Shown one piece after another: positions 6,444 through 39,410 of a stretch of 64,000 nucleotides of DNA. The position numbers and the translations under genes are program-made. The stretch comes from Haliotis rufescens (taxonomy: Eukaryota): contig NW_025963868.1 of assembly GCF_023055435.1 (NCBI RefSeq), positions 13,578,001 to 13,642,000 of the forward strand, in the 5' to 3' direction. The notes beneath the pieces were generated by a model, which did no database searches, was not told the origin of the DNA, and was given only the letters and a program-made list of their open reading frames with translations. Positions within the stretch are counted from its first letter, which is position 1, and the number at the start of each line of letters is the position of its first letter.

Positions 6444-6475
6444 GGGCAAATTCCCTGTTTCCGGGGAAAATCCCC
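6444..6475. promoter_or_regulatory. Paired NF-kB/Rel-type sites (copy 1)
   Basis: GGGCAAATTCCC (6444-6455) and GGGGAAAATCCCC (6463-6475) in a GC/CpG-richer patch, just upstream of a candidate donor CAG|GTGAAT at 6514/6515. Confidence 0.55.
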
Positions 6476-7471
6476 GTCGTTTCCGCATCACGAGCTCACG
6501 CGCTACTCCGGCAGGTGAATCATATATCATAATTTCTACATTCTGGTCGTTCTAAGGCACCAATATTTGGACTGTCAAACTCGTTTCGTCCAAAACATCG
6601 TGTGTAGCTTTTTAACTGTGTTATATGCATGTTTGTATGACGATAAGACCCAAGGTCAAACCACGCTGTCTGTACAGGACTGCATCAAGTACGTTATTAT
6701 CGCCTCTCGTTGAAGTGCCTAATGAATACTACAGCCAGCTTGTGTTTTATTCATATACACTGTGTTCTTAGTGCAGACTAAACTACTCTCGAAATATACA
6801 GCCGCCCTACCTGAACATTGTCTTTCGCACATATTGAAAAGAGCCGCTGTAAAATCATAAGTGACGGGTAAGGGAGGCAATCAGCATTGTCTCCCTGCTT
6901 CCTATCGTTTCTTCTTGGTTACTGAATGACTTTGTTTTGTTGTTAACGTCGCACTCAGCAATATTCCAGCTATATGACGGCTGTCTGTAAATAATCGAGC
7001 CTAATCCAGACAATTCAGTGATTGATATCATGAGCATCGATCCACGCAGTTGGGATACGATGACATGCATTAAGCAAGTCGGCGGGCATCAAAGTAGGAA
7101 TATTTTGTGCAAAAAATAAATGTTTATTTTCTTGATATGACGTCTCTTTATTCATGTATTAGGTACATCATGAAATCTACATATTATGTTTTCAAATAAT
7201 TGTGTAAGTCACACAGATGAGGAGAATCACTATTATAAGTTAGTATCAGTCAATAGCATATATGAAACTGGGTACTGAAAATCAGATGGTTATAGATTAT
7301 GTATGAAATTAGGAGAAATTATTCTGTTGAATTAATAATTATGATTAATTCCAAACAATGAAAGGAAATGTTTGCACAATTTACGCATCGAATACCCTTA
7401 ATCAACGAAGCGCAAACCTACCCTCAAGTACAGCTAAGAAATAATATTTATTTTAAAAGTGTCTTTTACAG

Positions 7472-7522
7472 ATATTCCACAAGCGATTCGAAGGCAGAAG
7501 ATGGAGATTCGACATTGCACAG
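7472..7522 (+). pseudogene. Orphan duplicate of the candidate ATG exon (MEIRHCT) of the STAND-ankyrin gene
   Basis: TTTTACAG|ATATTCC...GAAG ATG GAG ATT CGA CAT TGC ACA G|GTAGCA, same layout as 18031-18081; no downstream NTPase exon in this copy. Confidence 0.4.
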
Positions 7523-7561
7523 GTAGCACACATGACGGCATTCAATACACACAGCATTCGT

Positions 7562-7666
7562 ATAGGGAGTATTACGTGACGTCATACTTACAGAGGGTAT
7601 TACGTGACGTCATACTTAGAGGTATTACTTGATGTCATATTATAGGGAGTATTACGTGATGTCATC
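7562..7666. repeat. Short tandem array of ~27-bp units containing TTACGTGACGTCA (CRE-like)
   Basis: Four units G(A)GTATTACGTGA(C/T)GTCATA; three units at 18120-18200 in copy 2. Confidence 0.75.
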
Positions 7667-8959
7667 AAATTCAGTATGACTGTAATTGATTTATTACCAA
7701 CGCTTTGTCATAAATTGGAGAGATAACTATTATTATTGATTTTATGATGAAATGCTGTATTTACATGAAAACATATGATCGATATTTCACTCCAGTGAAA
7801 TAACACGTCTATTCACTTGAGTGAAATAACTCTTAATGCCGCATCTACTTTCGGCCTGCCTCAATGAAACTAAGGTTTTCAGCGAAACACCGTAAAGGTC
7901 TGAAGGAAAATACGTAATAAATAGAACATTTGTATTTTCTTGTGAAAAAAGATGAGCTGATGCTTGCAAAGAATAGACGAATGGTTCTCTCAAAATATGT
8001 GAACATGTAAAATCTTAATTTTGCTTTGTTTGCATTCAATTTTCAATGCAGTTTTCCGAATACAGCGTTCGTTCTCACACAATCCATAAGATGCAGATGT
8101 CATTTTCATAACGAGGATTTAGGGTAGATACAAGTTAGACATTTTTCAACTTCGTTTCCGTCATTATTTCTCAGTAATCGTTGCTCAAGACCTAAGTGCT
8201 TTGTGTATACTGTCTTCATTTGTCTGATATATCATGCAGATACTGACACTGTACAAATATGTATTAATCCCAACACATTCCATAATGGTCTAAAACTGTT
8301 ATGTTTCAATCATTAGGATTAAATATACATACTAGAGTTAAATAATTAAGTTACGTGTGGATATGGTCTGAGTGATCTGAGGTGAAGCTATGTGCTGTGC
8401 ACATAGTAGTGTAAGGATCTGCTGATTGTGCTTTTGTGCCACTTTTGTTTGTTTTGGTACATCATTTAAGAATAACTTCCATATGATAAATACGTTATCA
8501 ACAAATAACTTGTGCTGCTTTATATTTTGTGAGGAGTCTATGTATCTCATCATCAGATATAAGTCACAGAAATGTAAACGAGTGGGAAACGGGCAGAGTT
8601 TCAGTACGTTACAAGTTAACCTCCGAATAATTACGTACGGAAATAATGAGTGAAACGCGACAAAAAACACAACAGGATGATATTATTTAATAATTTTATT
8701 AAAGCAGTGACTCAAAAGCAGATACAATGTCAATTTATCAGATGATACAGAACTATAGGAACATCAAGTCTTATATCTTATCTTATATTAAGAAAAGGAA
8801 AATACGAACTGTTTTGTTTTTGTCGCACCAATTTGAGGCTGGACAACCGGGTATAGGCATATATACAGCATTTATACAACAAACGGTCGGGACTTAAAAA
8901 TAAATTCGTTATACAGGTCAGTTCGTTATAGGCGTGTTCGTTATAAACGTACTTTACTG

Positions 8960-9605
8960 TACTTGACTCAAGGCCAACACATTATGTTCAACACAATGAA
9001 TCAAAACGAGGCACAGTTAGAAAAGTTCAAACAGAGGAACCATAGTTTCGCTTAAGAAGAGCTTTGATGTGTATGATAATACACATGCCTCTTTAATTGT
9101 TTTGTGAATAGTGGCATTGTCATACGAGTGTAATGTGGACACAACTGCATTGCAATTGTGTCGGGTAATTAGGAAAAGAAAAGACAAAAATGCACATCTG
9201 GATCAGTTTCCTTAACACTGATATAGCTAGAAGTTCACATTGAAAAATGTTTGAAATATGAAGTTTCACCATGTGACCGGCGACTTCCTTGTAAATAATG
9301 TTTAATTCTGGTTATAGTCATTCAGCGAGAATAGTCAACTAATGTATGAACATGACCATAAAAATATGTTTTCTGGTTTAAGGAACATTTTGAATCCTGA
9401 GTGAGTGAGTAAAAATTTAACATATCATCATTTCATCCATACAGAGATGTCTACTCAGATGGCAACAGAGAGTGGTAGAAGCAGCCTGACAGGTATGGAC
9501 ATACTGATACAAACAAAGGATAAACGTGACGTCCTGTGTGAAAAAAGAATTATTATCCTGCAACATATCAGCTCCCCAATTACATCAACAAACCTGAAAC
9601 ATTTC
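8960..9605 (+). repeat. Older diverged paralog of ~4520-5480 / ~14905-15860
   Basis: Shared blocks TGTTCAACACAATGAATCAAAACGAG, GTTTCACCA.GTGAC..GCGA.TTCCTTG, TCATTCAGCGAGAATA and ACATCAACAAACCTGAAA in the same order. Confidence 0.75.
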
Positions 9606-10351
9606 GTATACAACAGTAGGATATGCTTAACAGGTGATTGGACCTGCACCGTCATTGAATAACGTATGACGTAACAGTCTTCTACTACAATCAAATACGG
9701 TATTCGTGTCGCCATGCATTCTAAATCATTGTGAGACTGAAAATATACATAAACACATACTATCATCCATTATTTATTTGAATGAAATAAACATTTATAC
9801 ACACTTAAATGGATCCCTCCGCTAGATTTATATCAGCCTAGTGCATGTAAAAGGAACATCCTCGAAAAACTAGAAAGTTGTTCATAAACAAATCTTATTA
9901 CCGTGTGTTCTTAAATTAAAGAGCAGGACTGATTCACAGTAAAACCCTTACCATACTATTCTGCCAATATCATGAGCATGTGTTTATGGATCACTATCAA
10001 AATAATAATGACACCAGATGTTGACGAAAAGATGAGCGCATACTGTCACGAACCATCCGTCACGAACACATGCAAAGGCAAGCCAGTTGTTCATCTAAAA
10101 CAACACAGATAATTCATTCTGGTTCTGAAGTGTAAAAATCCAACTTCATCTAAAGTATTTTTGAAATATGATGATTATTTAAATAAATCTTCGTCGTAGT
10201 ATGGGTTTTTGGTCTACCTTTCACTCTGCTGTAACTGCTGCACAGGGAATTTCAGGTCGGGATTCGGCTTTGTGTTTATTCAAAACTTCATACATTCAGG
10301 CTCATCTGTTCCCGCAGGTGTGTCCACGCAACGATGTTCTGCCTGATAACC

Positions 10352-12625
10352 TCATTCAGGTTCAACATGTTCACCCTGGCTTGCCTTGCTATTGGGGATA
10401 AAGCAGATGAATGTCCCCAGGCGGTTACGTCGTCCTCTGATGTCTTTTAATGAAGCGTAACCATATTCGTCAGGAAGATCAGGCATCTCAGGAGGACCAA
10501 CATCTTTAACTGGGCGTTGTCGCCTCCGCAGATAGATGACAGTTGTCATGATAATCAGAAGGAGTATCAGAATGGGAATACTGACAACGATGGCTGTAGA
10601 CTCAGGGCTGAGGTTGGTGTCTGTACTTGCAGTGGTTGCAGATGTTTCCGCATCGGAGGCACCTGGGGGATGTTAAATCGAGCACATGGTAAGTCACAAT
10701 ATATATAGTTATAATTTGCATATTTGTAATACAACAATTCAACCCCTTAAAGCATGCACAAAGTGCTACCTTATTTCTGGCCAATAGAGATTCCCGCCTG
10801 CCCTTAATTTTCATTCCGACGCGGCGGAATACATAAGCTTTTGTGTCTCAATTTTCCCCGCCACTAGGGAAAAGTATGGCCTGTTGTGATAAATAAAACA
10901 CAACTACGATTGCATACTCATACTTGGTGAGGTTAACTTTTCTTCAACTGTGTAATAAAAAATCATTTTCGAAGCAAAGCGACACCATCTACGTCATATT
11001 TTTTAATTCTTATAACCGCCTGATATAGTTCCAAGAGTGGGGCGGTCGAGTAGCCTAGTGACTAAAGCGTTCGCTCGTCGAAGACCCGGGTTCGAACCCC
11101 GACGTGGGTACAATGTGTGAAGCCCATTTCTGGTGTCCCCCGCCGTGATATTGCTGGAACATTGTTAAAAGCGGCGTGAAACGATACTCACTCACCCACT
11201 CACTCATCCTACAGGGTACCCATTCACAGCTGAGTGAAGAGAGGTAACATTCTTCAACATCTCAGTCATACCATGACTGCAGTAGCTACAATACTTGATA
11301 CAGGGCAAGTAGGGATAAGCGTAATGGAATACTCATCAAGTATAGAGATATCTGGACTTTGTAATAACATAAGGTTATCAGTGTGTTGAATGTGGATATA
11401 GTTTTACTTACGTTTGGGAAGGTGTTCTGCTCCATCACAAGAAACATCCCAGGTCCGAGTGCCACAGGTAAACCTAAGCTTCACATCAGCAATGGTTAGT
11501 TCTGTTACACTGACGGAAGTGACAAACACGTCATCAGTTATGTTAGTGACAGTTGTATCCATCGGATTTGTTGCGGTGCGTCCGGTCAGAAGTTGAAGGT
11601 GGTTCACTTGAGAACAGTAATAGCCTGTAGCCACCACTGCCAGCACAAGGACGTCATCGCCACTTAGACCACTGGTGATCTGGTCTGATGTTATGTTACA
11701 TGATGGAACCTCTGAAAGTCAAACCACACACCTTAAAACCTATTCTTCGTGTTATAATCATAAATTAATGTGTGAAATATTAAACTTGATACAGAAATGA
11801 TAGGTATTCAGTGTTATTCCTTTTTTTTCACATAAGGAAAAAGACATGTTACACAGAATGTACTTCATAAGTATTCTTCAGTGAAAATAACTAATTGCTA
11901 CTTACTTGCAACAGTCATGTGACAAGTGTCATGGTTAGCTTGATTTGCATCTACACTACATGTCCATTTCCCACCATGTGACTGCAGCACACTGGGTATA
12001 GACAGGACACTGCATGTGGTGTTGATGACAGATGCGCTAAAGTCACCAAGTTGTATACACTTTCCATCTGATAGGTCACACGAAGCAGCAGTATGTCCAT
12101 GAGGTGTTGAGTAGGAATGGGCGTTATTGACATGCATAATATTACATGTCAGATTTGCAGGGGCGCCTAATTCGACGACTTCTTCGCAGAAGAGATCAGC
12201 TGTAAATGTGACAATACAATGGCGTCAGTGATTTCGTCAGGTATACCTTGCAGGTCAAGTTTAGAAGTATGTATAATGTGAAAAAATGTAAGGAAGCAAG
12301 GAGCACCGTTATCAACAGTGACAGAGGGGTTACTTTCATCTGGAGTACAGGTGATAAGCTCGACGATACTTGCCTTTAATGAACGGCATCCTCAAGCAGA
12401 ATAGGAACAAGACAGGAACTATTGCTGCATGTGGACACGACCTTCTCACTAGTAGCAACTGCAAATATTGCACCAAGAAATGCTGCAATTATTATGCAGA
12501 TATAAAACGAATTAACATCATAACAATTATGTGAAAAACCATTAAAGGTGTGTCGTGGAAGTGCAGTTTTCAATGTCTTAATAGTTTTAGGATTTTCCTA
12601 TACAGGAACAAATACAACTTACCAT
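10352..12625 (-). CDS. Ig-like type-I membrane receptor, copy 2 (~330 aa; signal peptide, Ig-like domain, second Cys domain, TM, tail with YGYASL)
   Basis: Exons 12625-12623, 12458-12374, 12199-11906, 11711-11412, 10662-10352; open frame throughout with phase-1 domain exons. TM AIVVSIPILILLLIIMTTVIYL is followed by RRRQR stop-transfer; tail PDEYGYASLKDI. The stop at 10352-10354 appears premature relative to the ancestral frame. Confidence 0.82.
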
Positions 12626-15600
12626 TCCTGTATGATAGTTGAATCTTCAGAGACACATCATGATGCTGACGACACGAACTCCGCATGTGTTGAATACGCG
12701 GGTTCCATCAAAGCATACATCAACAGAAACCATACTGAATATATTTGGAGCCTTGTGAAAGTGTGTTCAAAATAAGTCAGTTTCCTGCACTATTATTACC
12801 ATCTAACAATGTCAGTTTGACTCAACACAAAATGACCCAATGCGTTGCTTCATGATAAGTTTCCCGCTGGGTGAGAATGATAACACACTCCTCTGTTATA
12901 TGCTACATGAGATGTCGGTTATGTTTTATTCATCTAAATGGGTCAACAGGAAATGGAAAATACTTTTTTAGCCAGGCCAATCAACCTTCCGTCATTATTA
13001 CACCATTTGAATATATAAATGAATACCTTCAGAATGAACAGAAAAAAACGTGGAGTCAGCAAGTTTTAAATGTTAGCCCCTTTTTTCTCTGAAAAGTGTT
13101 CAAGAGGGAATGTTCAAGTGCCATCATACTGACGAGCTTGGTAACCGGTTGTCTATATATTTTCACATATTCTTGTCTCTATAAAATAAGATCTATCAAG
13201 ACACCCATAAAAATAGCTTTACGTGTAGCAAGTACATCAACTTAATGTTGCATATTTTACAAGGCAAATGAGCATGATATATGAAATTGCATATTCAGTG
13301 TGTGTACAATTAAAGAGTGACTACATTCCACATTCCATTGCACTTTTCAATCAGTGTCAAGATCAGTAGCCAGTTTCCTGTGTGAAACTAAAACGTTGCT
13401 CTGGTCTAATTAAAGAGTCCGTTAAAATAATAAACGACACCATAAACAACAAAAACGTTCGCTTAAACGTAATAATCATTTTTATGACATAATGAACGAC
13501 AGCAGGTAGAATTACATGTGATGAGACACAAGGCACGAGACAGACTTGCGAAGGTTATGAGAATATATATAAACCAATACATTATACAATGCAGTGAGCA
13601 GGCAATGACAGTAGTGTCGGGACAACTTGAATCCAGTGTGTTAGGAGTGAGTGAGTTGGGTTTTAACAGTATTCCAGTTATATCGCGGCGTGTCAGCTTA
13701 ATGTGGGAGGAAAACCCGAAGTGATGCAGGTCTTAGACGTTTACCACTTCGGTGAAACCGACGAGCACGGGTATGTTGCTGACAAACCTACATACATAAT
13801 CGGGGCGAAACGGGATTCGAGCCCACAATCATGGGTTTCTGGCGTGTCGGGATTCAATTTCAATGTCTAGGCCAAAACATGTCTTTAGTAGTTGACTCAA
13901 CATACATAACTCCTACTGAATATCATTACACCTCAACCCGACTTCCTTGTGTATACAGTAATGATGAGGGCATTTAGCTGAAACAACTGACACTAGCCTT
14001 CCGTGTCCACGGGAGATTTGCAAAACAATTTCCTTGTTGAACACATTAAGCAAGTAGCGAATTTGTTTCACAAATAGTAACCAAAGCTAGCTGCCCTGAA
14101 AGTGAAATATGAACTTCAACAAGCAATAAGTGGTTAAAACAATAATAATATAATGTTTTAGGTAACTGTTTTCCACAAGGTAAAATGTATCATAACAAAC
14201 GGCTCAGGCTCGTGTTGAGACGGCTTCTGTTTAAATTATTGTACTGTATTATATCCATGTCAAAGTGTATTGTCAATGCAACACAAGTGATACTAACTTC
14301 ACCTTCACCTCACATTAGGATTAGACACATTATGGGAAACAAACCCAGAGCATAACACTTGTGTGTGTTCTCCCTTCACAAACATGAAACCATTTCCAGG
14401 AAACTGCGCGTGAAATACCAGCTGTATCTCACTGTACTGTGTCGCTCCTAATCGTATCAACACAAACTCAATAATATGACAGTACATTCATGATCAATTC
14501 CCTTAATTTGACAGCTGAGGGGACCAATTGTATATTTTCAAAGTGTGTCACAAAGCAATTGTACTGCTGAATCTAAATGCTGTTATTGTGGTGGTGACAA
14601 CAGTGCTCACTCACAACAATGAAGGACACTGATTGTGTGTAAAATATATTTCCATTGCTTTTCCTTAAAGTGGGCAGGCAACAACTGAACAGGAGATCGT
14701 GTTCATGTGGGTGCTCGAATATCTGATCCAATCTTCTCCATTTCCTGACAGATCTAAATTACAATTACCGACTCCATGAAAGGCATCTGCACGGAGAGCT
14801 GAAGGTCGGGGGCTCGAAAGATAGTTAAAAGATGGTACTTGTTGTTACCCTGCCTGAAGCTCGGCATTAAGGGGCTGAAACAAGGACTGGTCGCCTCGGA
14901 GTAGTATGTGTTCAACACAATGAATCAAAACGAGAAACAGTAAGACATATCTATGCAGAAATATATTTACGACGAGAGATATAATGTGTATTGCATCATA
15001 CATGCTTCTTCAATGGCATTGTAAATAAGTGACACCGTCAATAGTACAAGTGTTATGTGGCACCGCTGCACTGCAACTGTGTCGGGTAATGGGGAACGAA
15101 AGAATAAATACACACAGTTTCCCTGACATTGATCTGTAGCTATAAATGTCACATTCAGGACTATTTGAAGTATATAGTTTCACCACGTGACTTGCGATTT
15201 CCTTGCAAATAATCTTTAATTATGGATTTTCATCATTCAGCGAGAATAATCATATAGTTTGTACATGTGCATGGACTTAATATATGTCATCCTATGTTTT
15301 CGGCTTCAACGAACAAGTTGACTATTTACTTATTACTGGGAATTTCACTAGACAACTTCGACTGATGCTTTTGATCAAAGTTGGTTTGGATGGTATTTTT
15401 ATTATATCAGCGTGTGCATGTTTAAAGTGTACGTTAAAATTAATCGTTGCAACATCTTCATTTCATCCATATAGCGACGCCTGCTTAGGTGGCAAAAAAC
15501 ACCACAGACAATCCCAAGTGTTCTATACGGCTTCTGACACAGACATTGATATGACATCACAATTTTCCATTTTCTGAATACAGCATCCAAGTCATTGCTG

Positions 15601-16820
15601 TTAAACCATGCTGTCAAAATCATTTCAGAGACATTCTGTGAGTGAGTTCAAATTTAACATTGTAAAAACAGCATCATTTTATACACATAGCGTTGTCTAC
15701 TTTCATGACAACAGGAGCAGCAGAGGCAATCCTACGGCTTTTGGCATTCTGCCTCAAATAGGACAACGTCATGATCTCCTGGCAGTAAAGAGATTCAGTT
15801 CAGTTTTAGATATTATCCTCCCAAGTATCAACTCCTCAATAACATCAACAAACCTGAAATCTTGAAACCTGAATTGAGATACAAAATCTTATTTATTCCG
15901 TCAGAATGAAAATTCAGGACGGGCGGGAGATTGGAAACTCAGAAAAAATACGGACAGCCTTGGTGGTACCCTATAATCAATAACGCCGCACTCAGCAATA
16001 TTCCAGCTATATGTCGGCGGTCTGTAAATAATCGAGTCTGGACCAGACAATTCAGTTATTAATATCATAAGCATCGATCCACGCAATTTGGATCGATGAC
16101 ATGCATCAACCAAGTCAGCGGGCCTGACCACCCGATCCCGTTAGTCGCCTTTTCCGGCAAGCATGGGTTGCTGAAGACCTATTCAACCGTGGAATCTTCA
16201 CGGGTCTCAAGGCGGATTTGCTGATTTTTTGGTGCCATGAATATCATTAGGGTGCTCTTATGCATGGAGTGAATACCGGAAATTGGTTTATCCTTCATCT
16301 TGATTGGCGCCGTGTTATTCCCTATTGTATATCAGTACTTCCTTTTTTGATACCACATATTCGATTTTGAGATGTCAGTAAATCGAATATGAGATATAAC
16401 AAAATGAAGTTTTGATATTAAAAAAGTCGATGTTTGTTCATCATTAACTAATTTTACACACACAAAAGCGAAACCCATTATTGGTATCAAGAAATCGAAT
16501 TTTTTACATCAATAATGTACGTCTGGCCGGCATTTATTTTACGGATGCATTTCATTGTGCGGGTGTTTGAGCAATAACGAAAAGGTTTCAATACGTCGTG
16601 CCACGTTCTTTGAAGTGGTGAGGATTTTCTCTGAACATAATAAAAAGCGAATCAAGATAATATTTCAGATAATTTGAGACAAACTATCTAGTACAAAATA
16701 CCTTTCTAAGTTCTATATACACACACAGAGCAAACAAACTCATACTCTGTCAAAACTTGAACCCATAACGCGGCTCTAAAATCTACCCGGTTGGTCGCGG
16801 GGTAAGGGAGGTAACCATGT

Positions 16821-16852
16821 GGGCAAATTCCCTGTTTCCGGGGGAAATCCCC
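16821..16852. promoter_or_regulatory. Paired NF-kB/Rel-type sites (copy 2); candidate promoter of the STAND-ankyrin gene
   Basis: GGGCAAATTCCC (16821-16832) and GGGGGAAATCCCC (16840-16852), followed by candidate donor CAG|GTGAAT at 16891/16892. Confidence 0.55.
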
Positions 16853-17309
16853 GTCGTTTCCACATCACGAGCTCACGCGCTGCTCCGGCAGGTGAATCAT
16901 ATATCATAATTTCTACATTCTGGTCGTTCTAAGGTACCAATATTTGGACTGTCAAACTCGTTTCGTCCAAAACATCGTATGTAGCTTTTTAACGGTGTTA
17001 TATGCAACGACTATCATGTTTGTATGACGATAAGACCCAAGGTCAAACCACGCTGTCTGTACAGGACTGCATCAAGTACGTTATTATCGCCTCTCGTTGA
17101 AGTGCCTAATGAATACTACAGCCAGCTTGTGTTTTATTCATATACACTGTGCTCTTAGAGCAGACTAAACTACTCTCGAAATATACAGCCGCGCTACCTG
17201 AACATTGTCTTTCGTACATATTGAAAAGAGCCGCTGTAAAATCATAAGTGACGGGTGAGGGACGCGATCAGCATTGTCTTCCTGCTTCCTATCGTTTCTT
17301 ATTGGTTAC

Positions 17310-17462
17310 TGAGTGAGTGAGTGAGTATCGTTTTACGCCGCTTTTAGCAATATTCCAGCAACATCAGAAATGGGCTTCACACATTGTACCCATGTCGGGA
17401 ATCGAAACCGGGTCTTCGGCGTGACGAGCGAACGCTTTAACCACTAGGCTACCCGACCGCCC
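17310..17462 (-). mobile_element. SINE family A, inserted after the segmental duplication
   Basis: Flanked by direct repeat TTATTGGTTACTGA; absent at the equivalent site (~6920) of copy 1. Confidence 0.9.
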
Positions 17463-18059
17463 AATTATTGGTTACTGAATGACTTTGTTTTGTTGTTAAC
17501 GTCGCACTCAGCAATATTCCAGCTATATGACGGCTGTCTGTAAATAATCGAGCCTAATCCAGACAATTCAGTGATTGATATCATGAGCATCGATCCACGC
17601 AGTTGGGATACGATGACATGCATCAACCAAGTCGGCGGGCATCAAAGTAGGAATATTTTGTGCAAAAAATAAATGTTTATTTTCTTGATATGACGTCTCT
17701 TTATTCGTGTATTAGGTACATCATGAAATCTACATATTATGATTTCAAATAATTGTGTAAGTCACACAGATGAGGACCATCACTTAGTCTATTATAAGAT
17801 CGTATCAGTCAATAGCATATAAGAAACTGGGTACTGAAAATCAGATGGTTATAGATTATGTATGAAATTAGGAGAAATTATTCTGTCGAATTAACAATTA
17901 TGATTAATTCCAAACAATGAAAGGAAATGTTTGCACAATTTACGCATCGAATATCCTTAATCAATGTAGCGCAAACCTACCCTCAAGTACACCTAAGATA
18001 TAATATTTATTATAAAAGTTTCTTTTACAGATATTCCACAAGCGATTCAAAGGCAGAAG

Positions 18060-20466
18060 ATGGAGATTCGACATTGCACAGGTAGCACACATGACGGCAA
18101 TCAATACACACAGCATTCGTATAGGGAGTATTACGTGACGTCATACTTACAGAGGGTATTACGTGACGTCATACTTACAGAGGTGTTACATGATGTATCA
18201 CTCTCCTACCCAGAGTTCCTTGCGCCCGGCAGCCAGCCATCATAGTATGAAATAACACGTCTTTTCACTTGAGTGAAATAACTCTTAATGCCGGAACTAC
18301 TTTCGGCCTGCCTCAATGAACCTAAGGTTTTCAGCGAAACACCGTAAAGCTCTGAAGGAACATACGTAATAAATAGAACATTTGTCTTTTCTTGTCAAAT
18401 ATTTATCTCACCTCGACATCGTATCCCAATTGCGTGGATCGATGCTCATGATGTCAATCACTGGATTGTCTGATCCAGACTCGATTATTTACAGACCGCC
18501 GTCATAAAGCTGGACTATTGCTCACTGCGGCGTTAAACAACAAACAAACAAACAAACAAACAAACAAACCTGGCAAAGCAACGCCACTTATGAACACATC
18601 AACTTTGTCAGATCACTCGATGAGATAAACTTCTTATCTGACAAGAAAATACAGAAAAAGTTTATGTATTTGTTTATTTACCTTGTCCACATGAATGTCA
18701 ACAGTGACGGACTTGAACGTCGCATGGGGCACGGTGTTGGCCCAGTCGGCTGAGGCGCCGCAATTGGCTGTGCAGGGTTGCGACCCTTGAGCATACCAGA
18801 AACCTATGATCATGGGTTCGAATCCCTGATTATGTTTCTAGGTTTGTCAGCAACATACCCGTGCTCGTGGGTTTCACCAAAGTGGTAAACGTCTGAGACC
18901 TGCATCACTTCGGGCTTTCCTCCCACATTAAGCTGACACGCCGTGATATAACTGGAATACTGTGAAAAGCGGCGTTGAACCAACTCACTCATTAAAACGT
19001 CACAACTATTGGGACATCATCACGCATCACGTTGACAATGCTGTCTTGTTTATAGAGGGGAACACCATTATAACCTTTAGGCATACAGGTTAAGGAAATG
19101 CGACGTAAAGGAGCGTGTCTGCCACTAAATGCAATACCTCGATGCTTCAGTGATCAGTTTTTATTGTGTCTCAGGCGCTTACAAATTGAGAATGAACTAA
19201 GTTTGTGATGATACAGTGATCAGTTTTCTATTATGTCTCAGGCCCTTACAAATTGAGAATGAACTAATTTTGTGATGCTTCAGTGATCAGTTTTTATTGT
19301 GTCTCAGGCGCTTACAAATTGAGAATGAACTAATTTTGTGAATCGTCAGTGAACAGTTTTCTAATATGTCTCAGGCCCTTACAAATTGAGAATGAACTAA
19401 TTTTGTGATGCGTCAGTGAACAGTTTTCTAATATGTCTCAGGCCCTTACAAATTGAGAATGAACTAATTTCCCTTGAGTCCTGTGTGACGCCAAAAATAT
19501 GTCTGCTTGAAACATATTTTTTTCAAAATTGTTACATACAACTGGCATTTCTATTCAGGATCTATTCTAAAAATTCAAATCTACATCTGATATACGCAAA
19601 TGGCTTCTGAGCATGTTCAGTAATAATGAGTGAGTGAGTATGGTTTTACGCCGCTTTTTTAGCAATATTCCAGCAATATCACGGCGGGGGACACCAGAAA
19701 TGGGCTTCACACATTGTACCCATGTCGGGAATCGAACCCGGGTCTTCGGCGTGACGAGCGAACGCTTTAACCACTAGGCTACCTGTTCAGTAATATGACA
19801 ATTCTTGAAAATTACCTGAAGCATGCCCCATATCGCCAGCCTGGGACCCCATTGTTTTGCGTGGGTCCCCCAAAATGTATTGCGAGTCTGCAGGACACGT
19901 AACGAGAAAGACTAGGTAAATACATATGTGATGACCGGTCATAAGGACGACATCAAACATCAAACTAACTGACAATTAAAGAACTACGCTGTGAAAGTGT
20001 GTTTCCGACACCATGTGTTTGCTTTGTTTGTTGTTTAACGCCGCAATCAGTAATATTCCAGCTATTTGAGGGCGGTCTGTAAATAAACGATTCTAAACCA
20101 GACAATCCAGTGATTTTCACCATGATCATCGATCCAAGCAATTGGTATATGATGACGTGCATCAACCAAGTCAGCGAGTCTGACCACCCGATCCCGTTAG
20201 TCCCCTCTTACAAGCATAGTCGCCTCTTACGGCAAGTACGGGTTGCGGAAGACCAATTCGAACCCGGATCTTCAAATGTTTTTGCAAGACTGACGAGTCC
20301 ATCCAAGCCCTACCGGCCACGAGCTTAGCTTAAGACAACGAATCACAAGTCGTCAACTAATATAATACCGCAACCAACCATTTGAAGAAAGTTGTCAGAT
20401 GCAGCAAACATGTCTAACATTTCTTCTTCTTTTTTCTTTCAGATCGACGTTTCGAAAATATTTGTG
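18060..20466 (+). CDS. Candidate short 5' coding exons of the STAND-ankyrin gene: 18060-18081 (MEIRHCT) and 24-bp microexon 20443-20466 (DRRFENIC)
   Basis: Strong polypyrimidine acceptors at 18030 and 20442; donors GTAGCA (weak) and GTATGT; both exons end in phase 1, matching the phase-1 acceptor TTTTTCAG|AT at 23213/23214. Confidence 0.45.
19141..19470. repeat. Minisatellite, 5 x ~66 bp
   Basis: CAGTGA(T/A)CAGTTTT...TGTCTCAGGC(G/C)CTTACAAATTGAGAATGAACTAA repeated head to tail. Confidence 0.92.
19628..19783 (-). mobile_element. SINE family A with target-site duplication
   Basis: TGTTCAGTAATA on both flanks. Confidence 0.88.
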
Positions 20467-21230: not shown

Positions 21231-23213
21231 TATAAAGCCAGCCTCTGACTCATTAAGAATATTATTACTTTCACACCATTTATATAATCATTTGCTTAAA
21301 ACAGATGTAACAATTTACATATAGAGTTTGATAAGGAAGTACCTCTGTCATTATTATTGTCTGATTTATGTTTATTTATGCTTTTACCCCATGAAGTGGA
21401 CGAAATATCAGCAGTGAAATTTCTGTTGTACAATGTAGTGAATATAGCAGTTACCAACACAATAGAAGATATGATATACCATTAAATTCTAGAGTTTGTG
21501 GAACAGTTCTTTTTGTTCTGATCTGGATTGTCTGTCTACAATAGGGTGGCCATGTTGCGTATGCAGTAGACTGTCACTTGTGTGTTATGGAGACTGGAAC
21601 TGTTCAAACCGTTGCCAACATGATATCTGTTTTGAAATACCTTCACCAAATATATTTTCCTAAATGATTCTCCAGAGGAGAAAAGGATCAGATCTAGCTG
21701 GTACTAATTTTTGCAATTTGAACGCATGGTTATCTTTTGGTGACCTGGGAATAACGTATGTGTCTCAAGGATAGACAGAAAATCTAAGTTAAAATCCTGC
21801 ATGTAGGCAAGAAAGACTTTCATTGTAACATTTGACCTGTTATGATCCGGAGTAGAATAGGTCTCCAGCAACCCATGCTTGTAAAAGGCGACTATTCTTG
21901 TAGTAAGAGGCGACTTACGGAATCGGGTGGTCAGGCTCGCTGGCTTGGTTGATGAACTTCATCGATCCCAATTGCACATGTTTTCCATCTTGATCCCATG
22001 TAAACTCTTCCTACTTTCATCAGGTTGGCTGAACGTCCCGATTTTAATTCCAAATTGTCAGGTTTCTATCCCCATGTCAGACAACGTCAAAAGTACGACC
22101 TGCTCGCTCGCTCAGTCATGCGCCCTCCGTTTCCAATACAATGCAATATATATTATTTATGTGGCTAGACGTAATAATCTATATCAACTATGTTCACGGA
22201 GCCTCATGGTGGCACCATGATTGTTCCTGGCATAACTTCAGAATGGTTTCATACGAAATATCTGACATTATCCTGAAGGGATCATACGCAATCACCGAAA
22301 AACAACCCACAGAAACGGCCCTTCTGTATTCTGAAACGAAATTGCATCTTTCAATACATATTCATAAAGACATCTCGACATTAAGTTCGTGATTCATAAC
22401 GTTCATGTTTATGCATGGCGCACAATGTGGATGTTTCCTTGGAGCATGATACTTGCACACGTGTTATTCATGTGATCCGCAAACAGTGATTGTTTAGCTA
22501 ACAGGTGCTCAAGTCTTTGAATGACATTTAGAAGTGATGTACATAAGGTAGAGAATTTATGGATGTCAACTTCTTCATTATGTGGAGTATATACTTACTC
22601 CTTCATCAGGTGCATACATGCTATGAAGCAGAGAACAGACATGTGTACCTGTAAGAACAACAAAAATTAAACGATAACAAAACTGGAAACATTACAAGAG
22701 AAGCCAACCGTTAATTGGCCTTGATTGGTGATTAGCAATGGACAAGTGGAAGCCAACACTAAACAGTTTATTAACACTGATAGTTGACACTTGATAGCGA
22801 TGGACAACTGGAAGCCAGGCATTGGCAATGGGCAAACTTGACCTAATTAGCACTGATAGGTAATAGTGGCAATGGACAAATGGAAGCAAGCTTGATAATT
22901 CGCACAGTCAAAAATTCAAGTCGCAAGCACTGGGCAGATAGGGTCACGGTTCATGGCTGGCTGTTATCTCCTGGCTGCCCTTTACTTTTTTCCGGTAGTA
23001 TATAAACATCTGTGTCCAATCTAAAAATGTAACTTTATTATACATATGTGTCTGGACATGCTCAAGTGAAGGTAATTAGCCAACACTTGAACATGGAATC
23101 GAATTTATTTTGAAAACGTCTTCTTTACTCCAAATACAAAATGTATAAAGCAAACATTAAATATAATTTCTTTCAAGTCACGAATGATAGAGACGTGTCT
23201 GTTTCTTTTTCAG

Positions 23214-26200
23214 ATTCAACGAAGGCACTCCTCACTCATGAAGACACAGGGTATGTATCAACCTATTATGAGAGGTCAGCTATGAGGCTGTTGACAGAAC
23301 ATGGCCGGATATTCATCAAAGGGAGATCTGGTTCTGGCAAGTCAAGGCTTGGTATCAGACTTCTGGCAACACTATCTGAAAACAAAAGTAGAACACCTGT
23401 TTTACTAACCTCAGCTGAAGAATGGAAATTGATACCCAAAACAACTGCCCATGATCGACGCAGGTACATTGTGATGTTAGATGATGTATTTGGATCCAGT
23501 AATTTTGTCCCTTCAAGTGTAGATGGATGGAAAAGAACATTTGATATTATGTGGCCATCAATTGAATCAAAACATATTTTTCTTGTTATCACATCAAGAC
23601 CAGAGATAAGTATTCAGTGTGAGAATGAACTGAAGAAATATGACTTGATGCAGGACATGCCTTGTGTCACGTTGGATGAGGGAGAATATATACTTCAGGA
23701 GAGTGAAAAAAGAAAAATGCTGCAAACTATCTGTCCAACCAAAAGTGGCTTGATGCCAAAAGAAATACAAGATATTGCTTCAGCAAGAGCAACTCTTGGT
23801 TTTCCTCAGTGTTGCAAGTTTTTTGCAAGCAGTAAGCAAGCACAGTCTAAAGGAGTGAGCTTCCTTTTTCAGGCCGCATGACTATGTCTTGGAGGAGATA
23901 GACAGACTAAAAGAAAGCGACAGTTTAGGGTACCTTGTTCTACTTCTGGTACTCATGCAAAATGGATGCATGAAAAAAACACTACTAGAAAGGAGAACAA
24001 AAGAGTTAAGCAATATGCTTGAAACTTTAAAGGATGTGTGCGCAGACATGCCTGTATTGTTTCCAAGTCTTGTTAGAATCCGAGAAAAAGCTGATGCACT
24101 CTGTGGTGTATACTTAGTACTCAGTGCAGACGGATATAAGTTTCAGCATCAGTCAATATCAGAGTGTGTATTCATCACCTTGTCAAACATCGACACCAAC
24201 TTATGCATCGAAGCATGTCCTGTACCACTGCTTTTAGAGCTCATTCAAACGAGAGTAAATGATCAAAATGAGAATGAAATAGTGATATTATTGACTGAGG
24301 ATCACTATCCTGCGTTTGCTGATAGAATTACAAAACTATTGTTAACCTCAACTTCATCAAAAGAAATCTTGAACCATACCGCTTTTCAGGATGATGACTT
24401 CATTCGGTGTTTGGTATCCAAATGGACATCTGAAGGTAAAGTGCCAATTATTTGGCAGCATAACTTTGAATCAAAAACACAAATGTGGTTCACAAGTCAG
24501 CAACCAACGTCATTTAGCATCAATGTGGCATTGTTTGAATTTCAGAAAATTGTTCCGTTTCTGATTCTAAAGAATATCAAAACGCTTGTGGACACTTTGA
24601 TTGCATTGAATAAAGATGAAGGTTCAGATGTCCTCCAGGAGTGTTTACCTTGTGCAGTTTATGTTGGCAGAAACGACCTTGTGAAGACCCTACTTGATTA
24701 TGGAGCCACACCAGATGACAGTTTGTCCAGCAAGACATATAGACACCGATGTGGCAGATACCATTTTCAAAGTTGTTGTGGCAGTGCACGAGGAGGTTGA
24801 TGGAGCGGATCCCGATAAAAAGTTGACATGGGATTCCATATCCAATCTAAGAGATCTCTTCTGGCTAGCAGTAATGAATGGAAACGTACATATTGTACAA
24901 TTACTTGTCAAAAGGTTAAAGAGTGAAACAAACAGTTTGACAATCTTCAAGAATGCCTTGGTAGGTCTTGTCAAGGAACTTAGTAAAGGCCATAGATGTC
25001 CAGTATTTACGCCCTATAACATGACACACCTGAGTGAAATAATTAAAATTCTCCTGGGCACAGGATGCAAGGTAGATCTTGAGTATCTCATTTTGCAGGC
25101 AGCAACCCACACTGATGCTACTGCGTTACGTCTTTTTCTTGCACAAGGTGTACATGTGGATGATATATATGTTGCAAAAGAAGACGTTTACAGCACCGAA
25201 GATTATTATCCAACACCTTTACAGCAAGCAGCAGCTTATGGAGGGGAGGATTGTCTGGAAGAAATCCTCAGTTGTTCACATCTAATTAGCAGTAACCATT
25301 CATTATTGCACACTGCAGTTAAACATGGTAACACTGAGTGTGCGTCCTTGCTCATTCAGAAAGGCGTCCCAGTCAATACACTGGACAGAAATGGCAATGC
25401 ACCTCTTCATGTTGCTGTCAAACACAACCAGTTGAAAAGTATTGAGCTACTACTTTCAAAGCATGCATCTGTTGACATAGAAAACAGTGATGGGTGTATA
25501 CCATTATTATGTATGGAATATGCATCCCCTCCCGACATAAACATTGTTGCAACTCTTATAGATGCAGGAAGCAATATTAATGAGGTTGATAAACAACAAA
25601 GGACACTACTTTATAAAGCAGCAGAGTACGGTGACCTGGCTACTGTGAAGTACTTATGCAACAAAGGCGCCAACGTGAATATTGACACACAACAGTTCAA
25701 CATTTCCTGTATGGCAATCAAAGATGAACAAAGGCTGTGTAAGAGAGTTATTCTTGCTGCGTGCAGAAATGCTGATATTGACACCGTAAAGTTGCTCTGT
25801 GAACATGGTGCTGATGTTGACATAGTTGACGTCAATGGGGAAACAGTAATACACAAAGCTGCTGCATCCCGAATCGATGCTGTAGAGAAACTTCAATATC
25901 TTCTGGACATCAAACAGGTGCCTCTTAGTATACCAGACAATTCTGGAAGGACGGCCTTATTTCCAGCAGTGATGTCAGCTTTACAAACTGGGTATTTGGA
26001 AGTTCTGCACTTTCTTGCGTCTCGAAAGATGGACCTCAAGCAAAGGGATACTTATGGGGACAGTTTACTGTTATATGCATTAACCCTAAACCCATTGGAT
26101 TCAAAGCATACTGCATCAGAAGGCTTCATTAACCTGATGCTAAGCCATGGAATTGATCCAAACATAAAGAACCTACAAGGAAGAGCAGTGCTTCACTATG

Positions 26201-28010
26201 CTGCAGTCAGGATGACAAAGGACAAACTAACCTTGCTCCTAGACGGAGGTGCTGATCCGTGTGTTCAAGATGAAACTGGACAGACTGTGCTCCATTATGC
26301 TGTAAAGAAACGAAGTGTTGACAATGCGAGGTTGTTCTTAGAAAAGGGTGCCGATCCATGTGTTCAGGACCAAGACGGTAAAACAGCCCTTCACTTTGCA
26401 GTAGAATTGAAAGATTCTGACACTGTTAAGCTGCTCCTTAATAAAAGAGCTGACCCTTGTGTATCCGATAACTATGGCAGGGATGCCTTGTTTTACGCTG
26501 TAAAAGGCCAGAGTAGTCTCATCATGAAATTACTCCTGCAAAATGGAGCCAATCCTTGTGTACAGGATAGGTATGGCACTACAGTACTTCACATTGCTGC
26601 GAGGTGTCTTGATAAAGAAAACGTCATGCTACTGCTGGAACATAAAGCAGACCCACATACTCAAGATCAGCATTTCCAGACGACACTCCATTTTGCTGGC
26701 CGCAATACAAACAGTGAGGTTGTCAGATTACTTCTGGAGAGAGGTGTTGATTCCTTTGTGCAGGATGACAGTGGAATGACGGCTCTTCACTGTGCAGTAT
26801 TAAACTGCAACACTGAAAGTGTTGAGTTACTTCTGGAAAGATGTCCAGTAAGGGATATACAAGATCGAGAAGGAAAGACGCCACTTCACCATGCAGCGGA
26901 AACAGAATACACAAATATTGTTAAGCTTCTCTTAGAAAAAAACTTCGACCCCAGTGTACAAGACCGTTGTGGTGAAACATCCCTTCACTATGCAGCAAAG
27001 AGAGGGTATAATGAGAGTGTTGAGTTAATTGTGGAAAAAGGTGTTGATGTGTCTATCAAAGACCAAGAAGGCATGACAGCACTTCATCATGTGGCAGATA
27101 TCAGTAAGGAAAGTGTTCAACTACTGCTGGTACATGGTGCTGATTCCAGTGCAAAGGATCATATGGGGAGAACTCCTCTTCACCTGGCAACAGAAGGAGG
27201 ATGCAATGATAGTGTAAAGCTGCTTTTGGAGAATGGTGCAGATCCTTGTGGAAAGGATGATTTGGGCAAAACACCACTTCAATAAGCAGCAATTCACAAT
27301 GAAGATATCATTAATATGTTGTTTGAGAAGGGTGCAAACGCACATGTGCAGGACAAAGAAGGCAAAACGCCACTTCACTATGCATCAGATTGTAATTTGT
27401 GGAATTGTGCTCATCTGCTGTTAGAAAACGGAGCTGACCCCTGCCGACGGATCAACAAGGCAAAACAGCCCTGCACACTGCAGTTGAAGCTGAGTTTAGC
27501 TTTGATGTATTTGCGTACACCCACACGTCATACCGGTACGTAACGAAAAGAAAGAAGAAGAAGAGTATTGTTAAGCTCCTCATTGATAAAGGGTCCAATC
27601 CATGTATGAGGGACAAACAAGGAAGAACTGCACTTCATTATGCAGCTGAGAGAGGTTGCAGTGATAGCTTTCATCTTTTATTGGGAAATAATCCTATGCC
27701 ATTCATCAAGGACGAACAGGGAAGAACTCCTCTGCACTGTGCAGCAGCCAAAGGAAGCAGGGACAATGTTGAACTGCTCTTGGATAAAGGTGCAGACCTA
27801 TGTGCAAAAGATCAACAGGGAAGAACTCCTCTGCACTGTGCAGCAGAAGCCGAAAGTGATTGCAGTGAAATTGTTAAACTTCTCCTTGAGAAAGGAGCTG
27901 ATCCCCTGATGATGGATCAGCAAGGCATGACAGCCCTTGACTATGCAACTAGATGTGGGAACACTGCCAGCGTTAAGCTATTGCATGGAAGGGTTTCTGA
28001 GAAACAGTGA
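23214..28010 (+). pseudogene. STAND-class P-loop NTPase (nSTAND3-like) + helical region + ~25 ankyrin repeats; single ~4.8 kb exon with 3 frameshifts and 1 nonsense codon
   Basis: Walker A GRSGSGKS (23321-23344), Walker B YIVMLDDVFG, sensor-1 FLVITSR, GxP motif GFPQCC, winged-helix-like YKFQHQSI; then 33-aa repeats D..G.T.LH.AA....VKLLL..GADP. Breaks at ~23870, ~24720, TAA 27283-27285 and ~27445. The joined frame would be ~1600 aa. Confidence 0.9.
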
Positions 28011-29929: not shown

Positions 29930-30830
29930 AATGGTTTAATTTGCCATACTGACTTCAGAAAATGCGTGATTTTTATCAAAAACAACAACATTTTCATACA
30001 AACATGTCAATTTACAAATCAATAGCGTGTGTGTCCACCTCTGGTTGCGATGCAAACAATACATCTTCGTCTCATGGAATGGACCAGGCGTCGCAAAAAG
30101 TCCTGTGGGATATCTGTCCATAAATGCTGGAGCATGTGTCGAAGTTCCTTGGGTGTCTGTGGAACACGTGGTTGACGTCGAGGGCGCCGATCCATCTCAT
30201 CCCACACGTGCTCGATTGGTGAGAGATCAGGGGAGCGAGCTGGCCAGGGGATGACATTCACGTTGTTTTGTTGTCTTGAAGAGAATCCTGAACAAGTCGA
30301 GCAATATGAGGCCGGGCGTTTTCATGTTGAAAGGTAATGCCTGGGCCATGACGACCCAATAAACGGTAGAACAACGGGGCCGATGATCTCGTCGCGTTAG
30401 CGCTGTCCATTGAGATTTCCCTCTACCAATATCAAACGGGTCCTCTGTCTTGCTGTAATCCCACCCCATACCATAACCCTGCCGCCCCCGAACCGATCTT
30501 CTTCCAATGATTGACGCTACGTTCACCTCGACGTCGGTACACTCGAATCCGTTCATCGCTGTGGCTGAGGTGAAACCGAGACTCGTCAGTGAATAGAACT
30601 TGTCCCCTTTGCATGGCCGTCCAGCGTAGACGCTGTTTGTACCACTGTAGACGTGCTTGACGGTGGTTTCCTGTCAAAATTGGACGTCTGGCGGGGCGAC
30701 AGCCGTCAAGCTTCCGAGACGGGCCAAGGCGGGGGTGATGAATGATCCACGCACGAAAGGTGGTCTTGATGTGATGAAAAGTGTGAGAGATGCGTAAACA
30801 CGCTCTTTCCCCCTTATATAGCCTAACTAG
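29930..30830 (-). mobile_element. Decayed Tc1/mariner transposon (transposase fragments)
   Basis: VLFTDESRFHL and WPARSPDLSPIEHVW...GGHTRY motifs in broken frames; boundaries approximate. Confidence 0.9.
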
Positions 30831-37383: not shown

Positions 37384-38519
37384 TTTCAAGCAGCCTCGTT
37401 ACCATATGACGACAATACTTTCCTAACGCCTTCAAGTGGAAGACTTCCGTTGCTAACGTTTTCTGTCGATGAAACGACACACAACACATGCGAACACTCT
37501 TCAATGGTCCCATCAAATACACAAGTCTGGGAATTTCATTATTAATGATTTTTAGGCAACTTGTGTGTAGTTGTACGTCTTTGCATTGTTAACTATATCT
37601 CAACAGTATGTGGTTTCGGATTAAGTTTCAATAGAGACCACATAATAGATTATATGGTCTCAGAGATCGACATAAAAATATATAAAACGTTTCTCTTTAA
37701 AATGATGTCTTCAAAACAAAGTTGGTGGGATATAATATAACTGCAATAAAATAATCAAACGAATGAAAAAGTTTATTTTTGAAAGTCAATTCAAATGGCA
37801 AAGTCCCACCCACTGTTGACTGTCTAAAAAGTTTTCGTTGCTAAAATCCTTCCCAGAATAAATATACTCTACGGAAATAAAAACTGAGTCATGTACACGC
37901 TAAACTGCTTTGCGGGTATACAGGTATTTCTGAGACATTTCACTCTCATCAGTCAGCCAAGGCAGCTGTCACCACAATGATAAGAACGAAAGATTAAGAC
38001 AACAGGCTGCAATGGCTGCATCGGTGAAAGGGGGGCTGGTGGACAATCCGTACCCACATAGATCCGTTCCTTGTATATTTTGGCGGTCCGTACACAAATG
38101 TTGGATAACCCGTTACCACCAGTACCAAATCGACCCTAAAAAAAGCGTATTCGTACACAATGAAAATATATATGGTTTTAAACATCGATCGCTTCTATTT
38201 GATTATTTTAGGTACGGGTTAGCCATTTTCGGTGGTACTAGCGGAAAGAATAGTGAGTGAGTTGGGTTTAACGTAGCTTTTAACAGTATTCCAGTTATAT
38301 CATGGCGTGTCAGCTTAATGTGGGAGGAAAGCCCGAAGTGATGCAGGTCTCAGACGTTTACCAGTTCGGTGAAACCCACGAGCACGGGTATGGTGATGAC
38401 AAACCTGGAACATAATTGGGGCGCACCGGGATTCGAACGCACAATCATAGGTTTCTGGCGTGTCCAAGGGACGCAACTCTGCACAGCGTATCGCAGCGCT
38501 TTAGACGACTGGGCCCCCC

Positions 38520-39410
38520 TCAGACATTTTAATGTTCATCGAAACACAATATCATCTGTTTGGAGATGTTGTCAACAGCAGGGTAACACTCATGACTGGC
38601 CACGGGCCGGTCGTCCACGTGTGACGTTACGTCAACAAGACAACCATATTCGGTTGGTGCGTCTACGGAAGCGATACCAAACTGCCACATTACAGCTCGG
38701 ACATGTCCTGGGTTGAGTGGCAAGGCCGTACGCAACCGGTTGAGGGAGCACATCATCCGAACCCGACGTCAAGCGATACGCCCAGGTTTGCTTGTCACCA
38801 CCAGGCACGCCTGTCTTGGCGTAGACAGCATCTGAGGTTAGGTAGATAAGACTGGGATAGTATACTGTTCACAGATGAGTCCAGGTTTAATCTTGACAGC
38901 TCTGATGGTCGTACAGGGGTCTACATGCGTCTGTTTTAGCGACGTTTGGGTCACTCAACGTCATCAGTTTGGGGGTAGAAGTGTAATGGTATGGGGTGGC
39001 ATCACAACTCATGGGAGAACACAACTCACCATTGTTAATGGCAATGTGAATGGCGTACGCTGCCGGGACGACATCGTTCGAGATAATGTTCGACCCTTTG
39101 CGCCAATGCAGGGACGTAACGTCACGTTACAGCAGGGTAATGCCCGCCCACATGCTGCACGTGTTGTAACAGACTTCTTGAGGCAGCGTAACATTGCTGT
39201 ACTGCCATGACCGGCTATTTCTCCAGACCTCTCCCCTACAGAACATGTCAGGCATGAGATGGTAGGACGCCTACGACAGGACAAGAATCAACTGGTAACG
39301 CTAGCTCGGGCCAATCTTTTGTTGACATTTGGAACAACATCATCCAGGTTGTTTTCAATCCTCTGGTGTCTGTATCAACGCAAATGGTTGTCACACCTGA
39401 TATAGACATT
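38520..39410 (+). mobile_element. Decayed Tc1/mariner transposase
   Basis: HTH-like RHFNVHRNTIS, GRPRVT, FTDESRFNL, GGRSVMVWGGIT, QQGNARPH and *PAISPDLSPTEHV with stops and frameshifts. Confidence 0.9.

Follow-up and report, generated by a model that had tools for sequence, protein, structure and literature searches.

A segregating broken allele of an nSTAND3-ankyrin gene in Haliotis rufescens, a candidate NLR-like sensor

Haliotis rufescens has a gene in which an nSTAND3 NTPase is followed by a long array of ankyrin repeats. The copy described here lies in a stretch of 64,000 nucleotides (assembly GCF_023055435.1, contig NW_025963868.1, positions 13,578,001 to 13,642,000, forward strand). 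This stretch is called the window, and coordinates are positions within it. The window holds a broken allele, with three frameshifts and one stop, of a gene that other individuals carry unbroken. With moderate confidence, the intact product of 1,618 residues is read as an effector-less, NLR-like intracellular sensor, of which the window has a broken allele; we infer an immune function for the gene. The features of its long exon are as follows.

23214..28010 (+): long exon encoding NTPase, helical domain, winged helix, helical linker and ankyrin array; acceptor at 23214, stop at 28008-28010
23252..23728 (+): nSTAND3 NTPase domain (PF20720; Pfam, E 3.6e-20)
23729..24721 (+): helical domain of the STAND module with GFP motif (23798-23806), winged helix and helical linker, predicted from a model of paralogue L031
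25201..27983 (+): ankyrin array, about 27 repeats (translation, Pfam, model of orthologue P0001)
23863 (+): break 1, one extra base, the frame ending at TGA 23879-23881; in runs X1, X2 and X3, not in X6, X8, X13 or X14; X12 without cover
24721..24722 (+): break 2, loss of 14 bases; shared by the window and X1 alone, whereas the other seven of eight runs retain the bases
27283..27285 (+): break 3, in-frame TAA in repeat 21; in X1, X2 and X3, a sense codon in X6, X8, X12, X13 and X14
27448..27449 (+): break 4, one base missing; in X1 and X3, not in X2, X6, X8, X13 or X14; X12 without cover

The breaks and their polymorphism

The three frameshifts and the stop were located by alignment to the closest database proteins. 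Eight of the 24 runs listed were compared; these are ranked by likeness to the window, so no allele frequency can be read from them. The contig of X1, a possible source of the assembly, shows 0 differences from the window over 23000-27744 (4,745 bases) and has all four breaks. Because the two do not differ, the breaks are not assembly errors. The X1 animal also appears to have no second, intact allele, because in a heterozygote the collapsed contig should depart from the window at part of the 20-odd positions that distinguish the two alleles.

Other runs lack the breaks. X6 and X8 (DNA, same species label, two other studies) have none of the four. The same is true of X13, from the same species, and of X14, from another species, both guessed to be RNA; X12 is without both breaks that it covers. 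Breaks 1 and 3 are found in X2, and breaks 1, 3 and 4 in X3. These two are probably heterozygotes with a fine mosaic of allele types; in X3 an intact-type base at 27318 stands between broken-type bases at 27284 and 27372. An ordered series of breaks (0, 2, 3 and 4 in X6/X8, X2, X3 and X1) was rejected, as collapsed heterozygous contigs fit better. One individual truly has the breaks while others of its species do not, and the allele is a segregating null.

When only the three indels are corrected, the coding sequence is 4,857 nucleotides long, in whole codons, and encodes 1,618 amino acids. The predicted product of the broken allele has 237. None of the variants shown for the intact contigs creates a stop. 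None of the runs listed is recorded as RNA. In two unique intron bins that the DNA run X3 covers, X12, X13 and X14 are covered poorly or not at all, which is not proof of transcription. X12 has the species label of the source, and on window 23882-27361 it has 17 of 40 shown variants in common only with X14, from the other species. The run may carry a divergent allele or an introgressed one, stem from a hybrid, or be mislabelled.

The sites at which the intact contigs agree against the window comprise 11 non-synonymous and 2 synonymous changes, close to the share of 78% under neutrality (p 0.75). The differences shown for X14, alone or in common with X12, are 11 non-synonymous to 14 synonymous, which is below neutral (p 2.6e-4). 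Fisher's test of window-specific versus X14 changes gives 0.036. These counts, which are small and come from the variant rows shown, suggest that selection is relaxed on the broken allele, where changes occur as under neutrality. Eleven of the 17 window-specific changes, the stop included, lie within 360 bases (27160-27520; p 3e-9). Gene conversion was rejected as the origin of this cluster, no donor being found in 56 paralogue stretches or in the genome (G000).

Domain architecture

The long exon was initially annotated as one intronless exon of about 4.8 kb encoding the whole protein. It is indeed a single exon from NTPase to ankyrins, but it is not one frame: its open frames run at 23114-23881, 23859-24800, 24685-27285 and 27438-28010, and two small coding exons precede it. 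The NTPase motifs are found where that annotation placed them (23321-23806), with Walker A GRSGSGKS at 23321-23344, Walker B IVMLDDVFG at 23468-23494 and the sensor-1 TSR motif, as ITSR, at 23588-23599 (all +). With GFP as the GxP motif, all four STAND motifs are present. Among 42 family rows, Walker A is found in 40, GFP in 34 and a TSR-like motif in 27.

The earlier preference for nSTAND3 over NACHT or NB-ARC is borne out by the profile search. nSTAND3 is the top Pfam match (72.7 bits, cut-off 27.2) and the sole P-loop family above its cut-off; the runner-up (E 0.003) falls below. In the same scan NB-ARC is below cut-off (E 0.008; 15.9 bits versus 23.5), NACHT has no match at E<=0.1, and nothing in Pfam matches 23880-24716. 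The protein is not a canonical NLR, its NTPase being neither NACHT nor NB-ARC and its sensor consisting of ankyrins, not LRRs. The very long ankyrin array following the helical region was expected to hold some 25 repeats; hand counting in the translation gives 27, preceded by about three degenerate ones. The gene's own repeats are diverse, with a mean identity of 0.33 over eight motif-matched repeats.

Predicted fold

The module following the P-loop was studied in paralogue L031, which is 58% identical to the window in the NTPase and of which residues 1-560 were modelled. The mean predicted local distance difference test score (pLDDT) is 89.9. The top two Foldseek matches are Avs4 (E 1.2e-6) and EfAvs5 (2.5e-6), followed by NLRP14, NLRP3, SAMD9 and NRC1. 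In a wide structural search, residues 1-357 match STAND modules with Z 13-15, root-mean-square deviation (rmsd) 4.0-4.5 and 268-286 aligned residues. The top match is 8bob, a maltose system regulator complex (Z 15.0, rmsd 4.0, 283 aligned); resting NRC2 (Z 13.7, rmsd 4.2, 268 aligned) and the NLRP3 NACHT (Z 13.3, rmsd 4.5, 283 aligned) also match. Structure prediction had been proposed with the initial annotation, and the L031 model yields a full STAND fold. A complete module of nucleotide-binding domain (NBD), helical domain (HD1) and winged-helix domain (WHD) is thereby predicted for the intact allele only. Break 1 lies just after the GFP helical domain, and the broken product ends ahead of the winged helix.

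Three further analyses concern other parts or states of the protein. A second fold search, with a 1,115-residue model, probed the ankyrin part only, and a sequence search of the PDB gave only ankyrin matches among the 60 rows shown. Oligomer prediction with three copies of L031 residues 1-330 scored 0.00 in both runs and speaks neither for nor against oligomerisation.

Orthologues and family size

The gene has orthologues in H. rubra (P0001, 76% identical) and H. asinina (P0002, 73%, 1,676 amino acids), and ten of its eleven close database relatives bear Haliotis names; the eleventh, in truncated form, reads 'Haliotis crach'. Several paralogues in the genome have an NTPase identical to that of proteins named H. 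rufescens. In a tree of 70 rows, drawn up without P0009 and rows of less than 200 residues, the window groups with P0001 and P0002 at 100/100 support, to the exclusion of every G000 paralogue. The next long DNA match in the genome is 66-67% identical. The locus is single-copy, and the assembled animal is therefore without an intact copy in its assembly.

The family itself is large. Searching the genome with the NTPase gave 58 matches at 57 places, to which the Pfam profile adds six; at least 63 nSTAND3 places are present, a lower bound with 21 of 351 profile candidates scored. NACHT has five matches in 52 candidates scored and NB-ARC none in 79, counts that may miss genes split by introns. Fifty-five of the 56 paralogue stretches fetched gave a local match, and 46 of these 55 have open frames of at least 900 amino acids. 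Three (L038, L068 and L070) are broken, with ankyrin pieces downstream. Repeats per paralogue range from 2 to 46 by our own profile, many of the genes lie in local clusters, and about ten paralogues have highly similar, near-identical internal repeats. Few and conserved paralogues would have spoken against the sensor family initially proposed; they are the opposite, numerous and variable. Profile searching yielded 5,136 representatives with E<=0.001; twenty were looked up, and all 17 with names are molluscs. Several mollusc clusters in the ESM Atlas carry the nSTAND3-ankyrin architecture.

Truncation and clustering are also seen in individual paralogues. The nearest one, L031 (G000:C157, minus strand), has a stop inside its ankyrin array with nine more in-frame repeats behind it. 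Its black abalone orthologue, P0003, ends at the same residue; the shortened sensor is common to two species. Four close paralogues (L036-L039, one of them frameshifted) are found at G000:C90:10.86-10.95 Mb, 2.7 Mb from the window. Their ratio of non-synonymous to synonymous substitution rates (dN/dS, omega) is near or above 1 in several parts, with few changes.

Selection on the ankyrin surface

Six ankyrin positions, which we take to be the surface by DARPin numbering, have an omega of 1.23 (0.71-2.04) in nine close paralogue pairs of the 20 computed. In the same pairs omega is 0.45 (0.32-0.58) in the first 350 codons and 0.71 at the other non-motif ankyrin positions. At 23 of 48 surface positions the window and P0002 have the same residue, as they do at 123 of 165 others. 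The ankyrin surface varies faster than other positions. The initial annotation had proposed dN/dS on surface residues across paralogues as a check; with the interval of 0.71-2.04, positive selection is not significant.

Upstream exons and the effector question

The likely start of the gene lies upstream of the long exon, in two small exons. A second copy of the first is also present.

18031..18081 (+): exon with the likely start codon, ATG at 18060 (MEIRHCT), and a phase-1 donor; from likeness to orthologue N-termini and AG/GT ends, with splicing inferred
20443..20466 (+): 24-nucleotide micro-exon (DRRFENIC), phase 1 on both sides; from likeness to orthologue N-termini
7472..7522 (+): second copy of the ATG exon, within a tandem duplication of about 9 kb; from sequence comparison

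Orthologues P0001 and P0002 start only about 15 residues ahead of the long exon, and these residues map to the two upstream exons. Similar micro-exons precede paralogues L031, L032 and L044. The X14 contig stops aligning at 23213 and has 29 unaligned letters beyond that point, which hints weakly at splicing. In the model of P0001 the N-terminal exons form a single helix (residues 2-23). The ATG exon begins with a phase-1 acceptor; inside the exon, the frame stays open on the 5' side of the ATG. The tandem duplication pairs a segment from about 1 kb before the window to 7635 with 8852-18196, at 88-96% identity by block. The repeated part (1-7635 versus 8852-18196) contains the ATG exon and probably the promoter too.

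No N-terminal effector domain is found in the orthologue models or the upstream frames, and SIR2 is absent from orthologues and upstream frames alike. None of the 64 upstream plus-strand frames of at least 40 amino acids reached a Pfam cut-off, and a sister paralogue has in-frame stops immediately before its ATG. For these two reasons the gene is probably effector-less.

Effector domains do occur among relatives. Of 150 representatives listed, 45 chosen for their long N-termini were scanned, and these include 12 with DZIP3-HEPN, 2 with SAM, 1 with caspase and 1 with PARP. The caspase case, P0018, is paralogue L044 of the same genome and belongs to the same 13-row clade as the window. It is the only row of this clade with a recognised N-terminal domain; the others mostly have short or unrecognised N-termini. 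Its caspase has His-Gly and QSCRG motifs, which we take to be catalytic, and is encoded by exons 20-35 kb upstream, joined via a phase-1 micro-exon. The annotated caspase-nSTAND3-ankyrin fusion is located at G000:C534:118639-158000 (L094-L097, L044) and carries some 28 near-identical repeats. One codon ahead of its own stop, the last caspase exon has a splice donor, and either a lone caspase or a fusion could result.

Proposed function and alternatives

STAND biology suggests how the intact protein would work. At rest it would be closed and nucleotide-bound. Binding of a ligand, most likely a pathogen protein, to the concave ankyrin surface would release the closed state; nucleotide exchange would then lead to oligomerisation through the NBD and winged helix. 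Since its N-terminus consists of one short helix, the protein would relay its signal through a partner. The likeliest candidates are a family member that bears an effector, for example the annotated caspase-nSTAND3-ankyrin gene, or an adaptor. Helper-dependent sensor NLRs are known from NAIP-NLRC4 and the NRC network. Translation of the broken allele would end past the helical domain, giving 237 residues that include neither the winged helix nor the sensor. Most likely the allele is a null under drift, as in other birth-and-death receptor families.

Several points weigh against this account. No ligand, partner, infection response or phenotype was observed. PADLOC Avs5 profiles match only 1 of 50 family members. 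Relative to its own dS the surface omega is 0.83 (0.61-1.01), again with positive selection not significant. A single copy has been kept across three species at 73-76% identity, and turnover is slower than in many immune receptors. The caspase fusion is a single RefSeq model, is predicted, and has a caspase exon that can end at its own stop; nothing ties P0018 to the window gene. As to the alleles, their states come from assembled contigs, which collapse heterozygous sites; the variants are those among 40 of 47 and 40 of 145 rows shown; and the RNA nature of X12, X13 and X14 is the guess of a tool.

A role outside immunity, as an NTPase-ankyrin scaffold resembling TANC or ANKRD50 proteins in a family that grew for other reasons, is unlikely for the intact protein. 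TANC2- and ANKRD50-named clusters do appear among the Atlas look-alikes at 0.86-0.87, which is a lead only, and a scaffold would suit both the single copy retained across the genus and the lack of significant positive selection. It sits badly with a family of at least 63 places that includes tandem clusters and broken members and varies in repeat number, with relatives that bear caspase and HEPN domains, and with an animal that has no intact copy in its assembly.

We also think it decidedly unlikely that the gene encodes a self-contained receptor whose effector domain lies on upstream exons missed by annotation. The phase-1 acceptor and open frame of the ATG exon would allow this, and models of paralogues extend N-terminally by up to about 700 amino acids via the same type of micro-exon. 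However, both orthologue models begin at this Met (18060), stops stand ahead of the sister paralogue's ATG, and the 64 upstream frames contain no Pfam domain.

Balancing selection on the broken allele is improbable. Loss of the sensor might avoid a cost, or the 237-residue NTPase fragment might act as a regulator. Breaks 1 and 3 occur in three of five DNA runs, from two of four studies; the allele is not new, since it has gathered four breaks and about 13 other changes; and X12 shares its 17 of 40 shown variants with another species. Three genes with family-type automatic names are in a list of genes under post-epidemic balancing selection in black abalone (PMC13229213 Dataset S1), without identifiers that tie them to the family, and such names are given to many long ankyrin proteins. 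On the other side, ranking by likeness to the broken allele leaves its frequency unreadable, one of the three carrier runs may be the source animal and the other two are from one study, and the fragment would be without the winged helix, which closes the nucleotide pocket in EfAvs5 (PMC11897194).

That the breaks are assembly errors in an intact gene is scarcely credible: break 1 adjoins a run of T and single-base indels are typical of long-read errors, but X1 contigs reproduce all four breaks with 0 differences over 4,745 bases, X2 and X3, from other samples, carry two and three of them, and neither the loss of 14 bases nor the two-base change that creates the stop is typical of errors.

Other features of the window and surroundings

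Decayed Tc1/mariner-type transposase pieces are found at 30019-30830 (-), with a weak Pfam match, and at 38342-39210 (+), by eye. Minisatellite arrays with 17-base and 21-base units (50258-51412 and 51949-53363) account for the long open frames there. A 319-codon open frame at 55728-56687 (+) is charged and of low complexity, with no Pfam match; it may represent an exon from a neighbouring gene. An exon of a small Ras-like GTPase gene (L089, by eye) lies on the minus strand, about 25 kb ahead of the window.

Significance

What the reference assembly presents as a pseudogene is a working gene in the species, with consequences for annotation and for estimates of load. A natural null at a single-copy member is also a ready genetic test, as carriers and non-carriers can be compared in existing abalone disease cohorts without engineering.

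Outside pearl oyster, mollusc NACHT genes are few: typically 5-20 (PMC9646362), and 4 in Aplysia (PMC9334734). Scarcity of NLRs in gastropods may reflect a search with the wrong profile; it is possibly only apparent, because nSTAND3 occurs at 63 or more places in the genome, compared with 5 matches for NACHT and 0 for NB-ARC. A wider proposal is possible if rather doubtful. nSTAND3-ankyrin proteins, as kin of Avs5, may be the main NLR-equivalent repertoire of abalone, about tenfold over NACHT genes and hidden under names like 'PP6 ankyrin subunit-like'. They would form a sensor-helper network in which a caspase-fused member is switched on by sensors that, like this one, have no effector; old null alleles of single sensors would segregate and shape disease resistance in abalone. 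Three genes under post-epidemic balancing selection in black abalone (PMC13229213) have names such as NCBI gives to 5 of the 11 close relatives, which is a lead only.

The nSTAND3-ankyrin architecture is already catalogued in databases; the mollusc family is unstudied. No paper on it in abalone was found in a literature search that is thin on subscription journals. Oyster expansions involve STAND, HEPN and ankyrin domains (PMC8195603), and the term 'STAND3' is absent from the main text of that paper. PMC3710099 and 10.64898/2026.01.04.697583 serve as background only.

Comparison with known systems

nSTAND3 is the NTPase of bacterial Avs5 (PMC11897194), which agrees with the place in some anti-phage AVAST-type sensors that the initial annotation gives it. 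In Avs5, the closest nSTAND3 proteins to have been studied, defence depends on the C-terminal repeats and on nucleotide binding, and filaments form upon activation (PMC11897194; 10.1101/2025.07.08.663546). The domain is described in bacterial conflict systems and in metazoan TRADD-N-associated proteins (PMC11897194); because of the latter report, animal nSTAND3 is known in outline. Avs5 is a SIR2-nSTAND3-repeat sensor (PMC11897194; 10.1101/2025.07.08.663546) that shares with the abalone gene the Pfam NTPase family, the TSR/TTR motif, the NBD-HD-WHD order and a C-terminal helical-repeat sensor. Unlike Avs5, the abalone gene has no recognised SIR2 or other effector, an ankyrin sensor of about 900 amino acids, and introns. 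Sequence identity to EfAvs5 in the structural alignment is 9%.

Animal and plant NLRs resemble the intact gene in having a STAND module followed by a long repeat solenoid, and in forming a large, clustered and partly broken family; the predicted fold matches NRC2 and NLRP3. They differ in that the abalone NTPase is neither NACHT nor NB-ARC by profile, and that ankyrins take the place of LRRs.

Fungal NACHT-ankyrin NLRs (PMC13449251) also have ankyrin sensors, with near-identical repeats like those of several abalone paralogues, and genes that are broken in some individuals and intact in others. That paper, with nSTAND3 in its survey, links near-identical internal repeats to NLR-like proteins and describes fungal NLRs that some strains carry broken and others intact. 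In contrast, the abalone NTPase is of another clade and the repeats of the window gene are diverse. The DZIP3-HEPN/SAM-nSTAND3-ankyrin proteins of other molluscs (scallops, mussel relatives and Gigantopelta) have the same core architecture and belong to the same family; in the abalone clade of the window gene, unlike in these, N-termini are mostly short or unrecognised.

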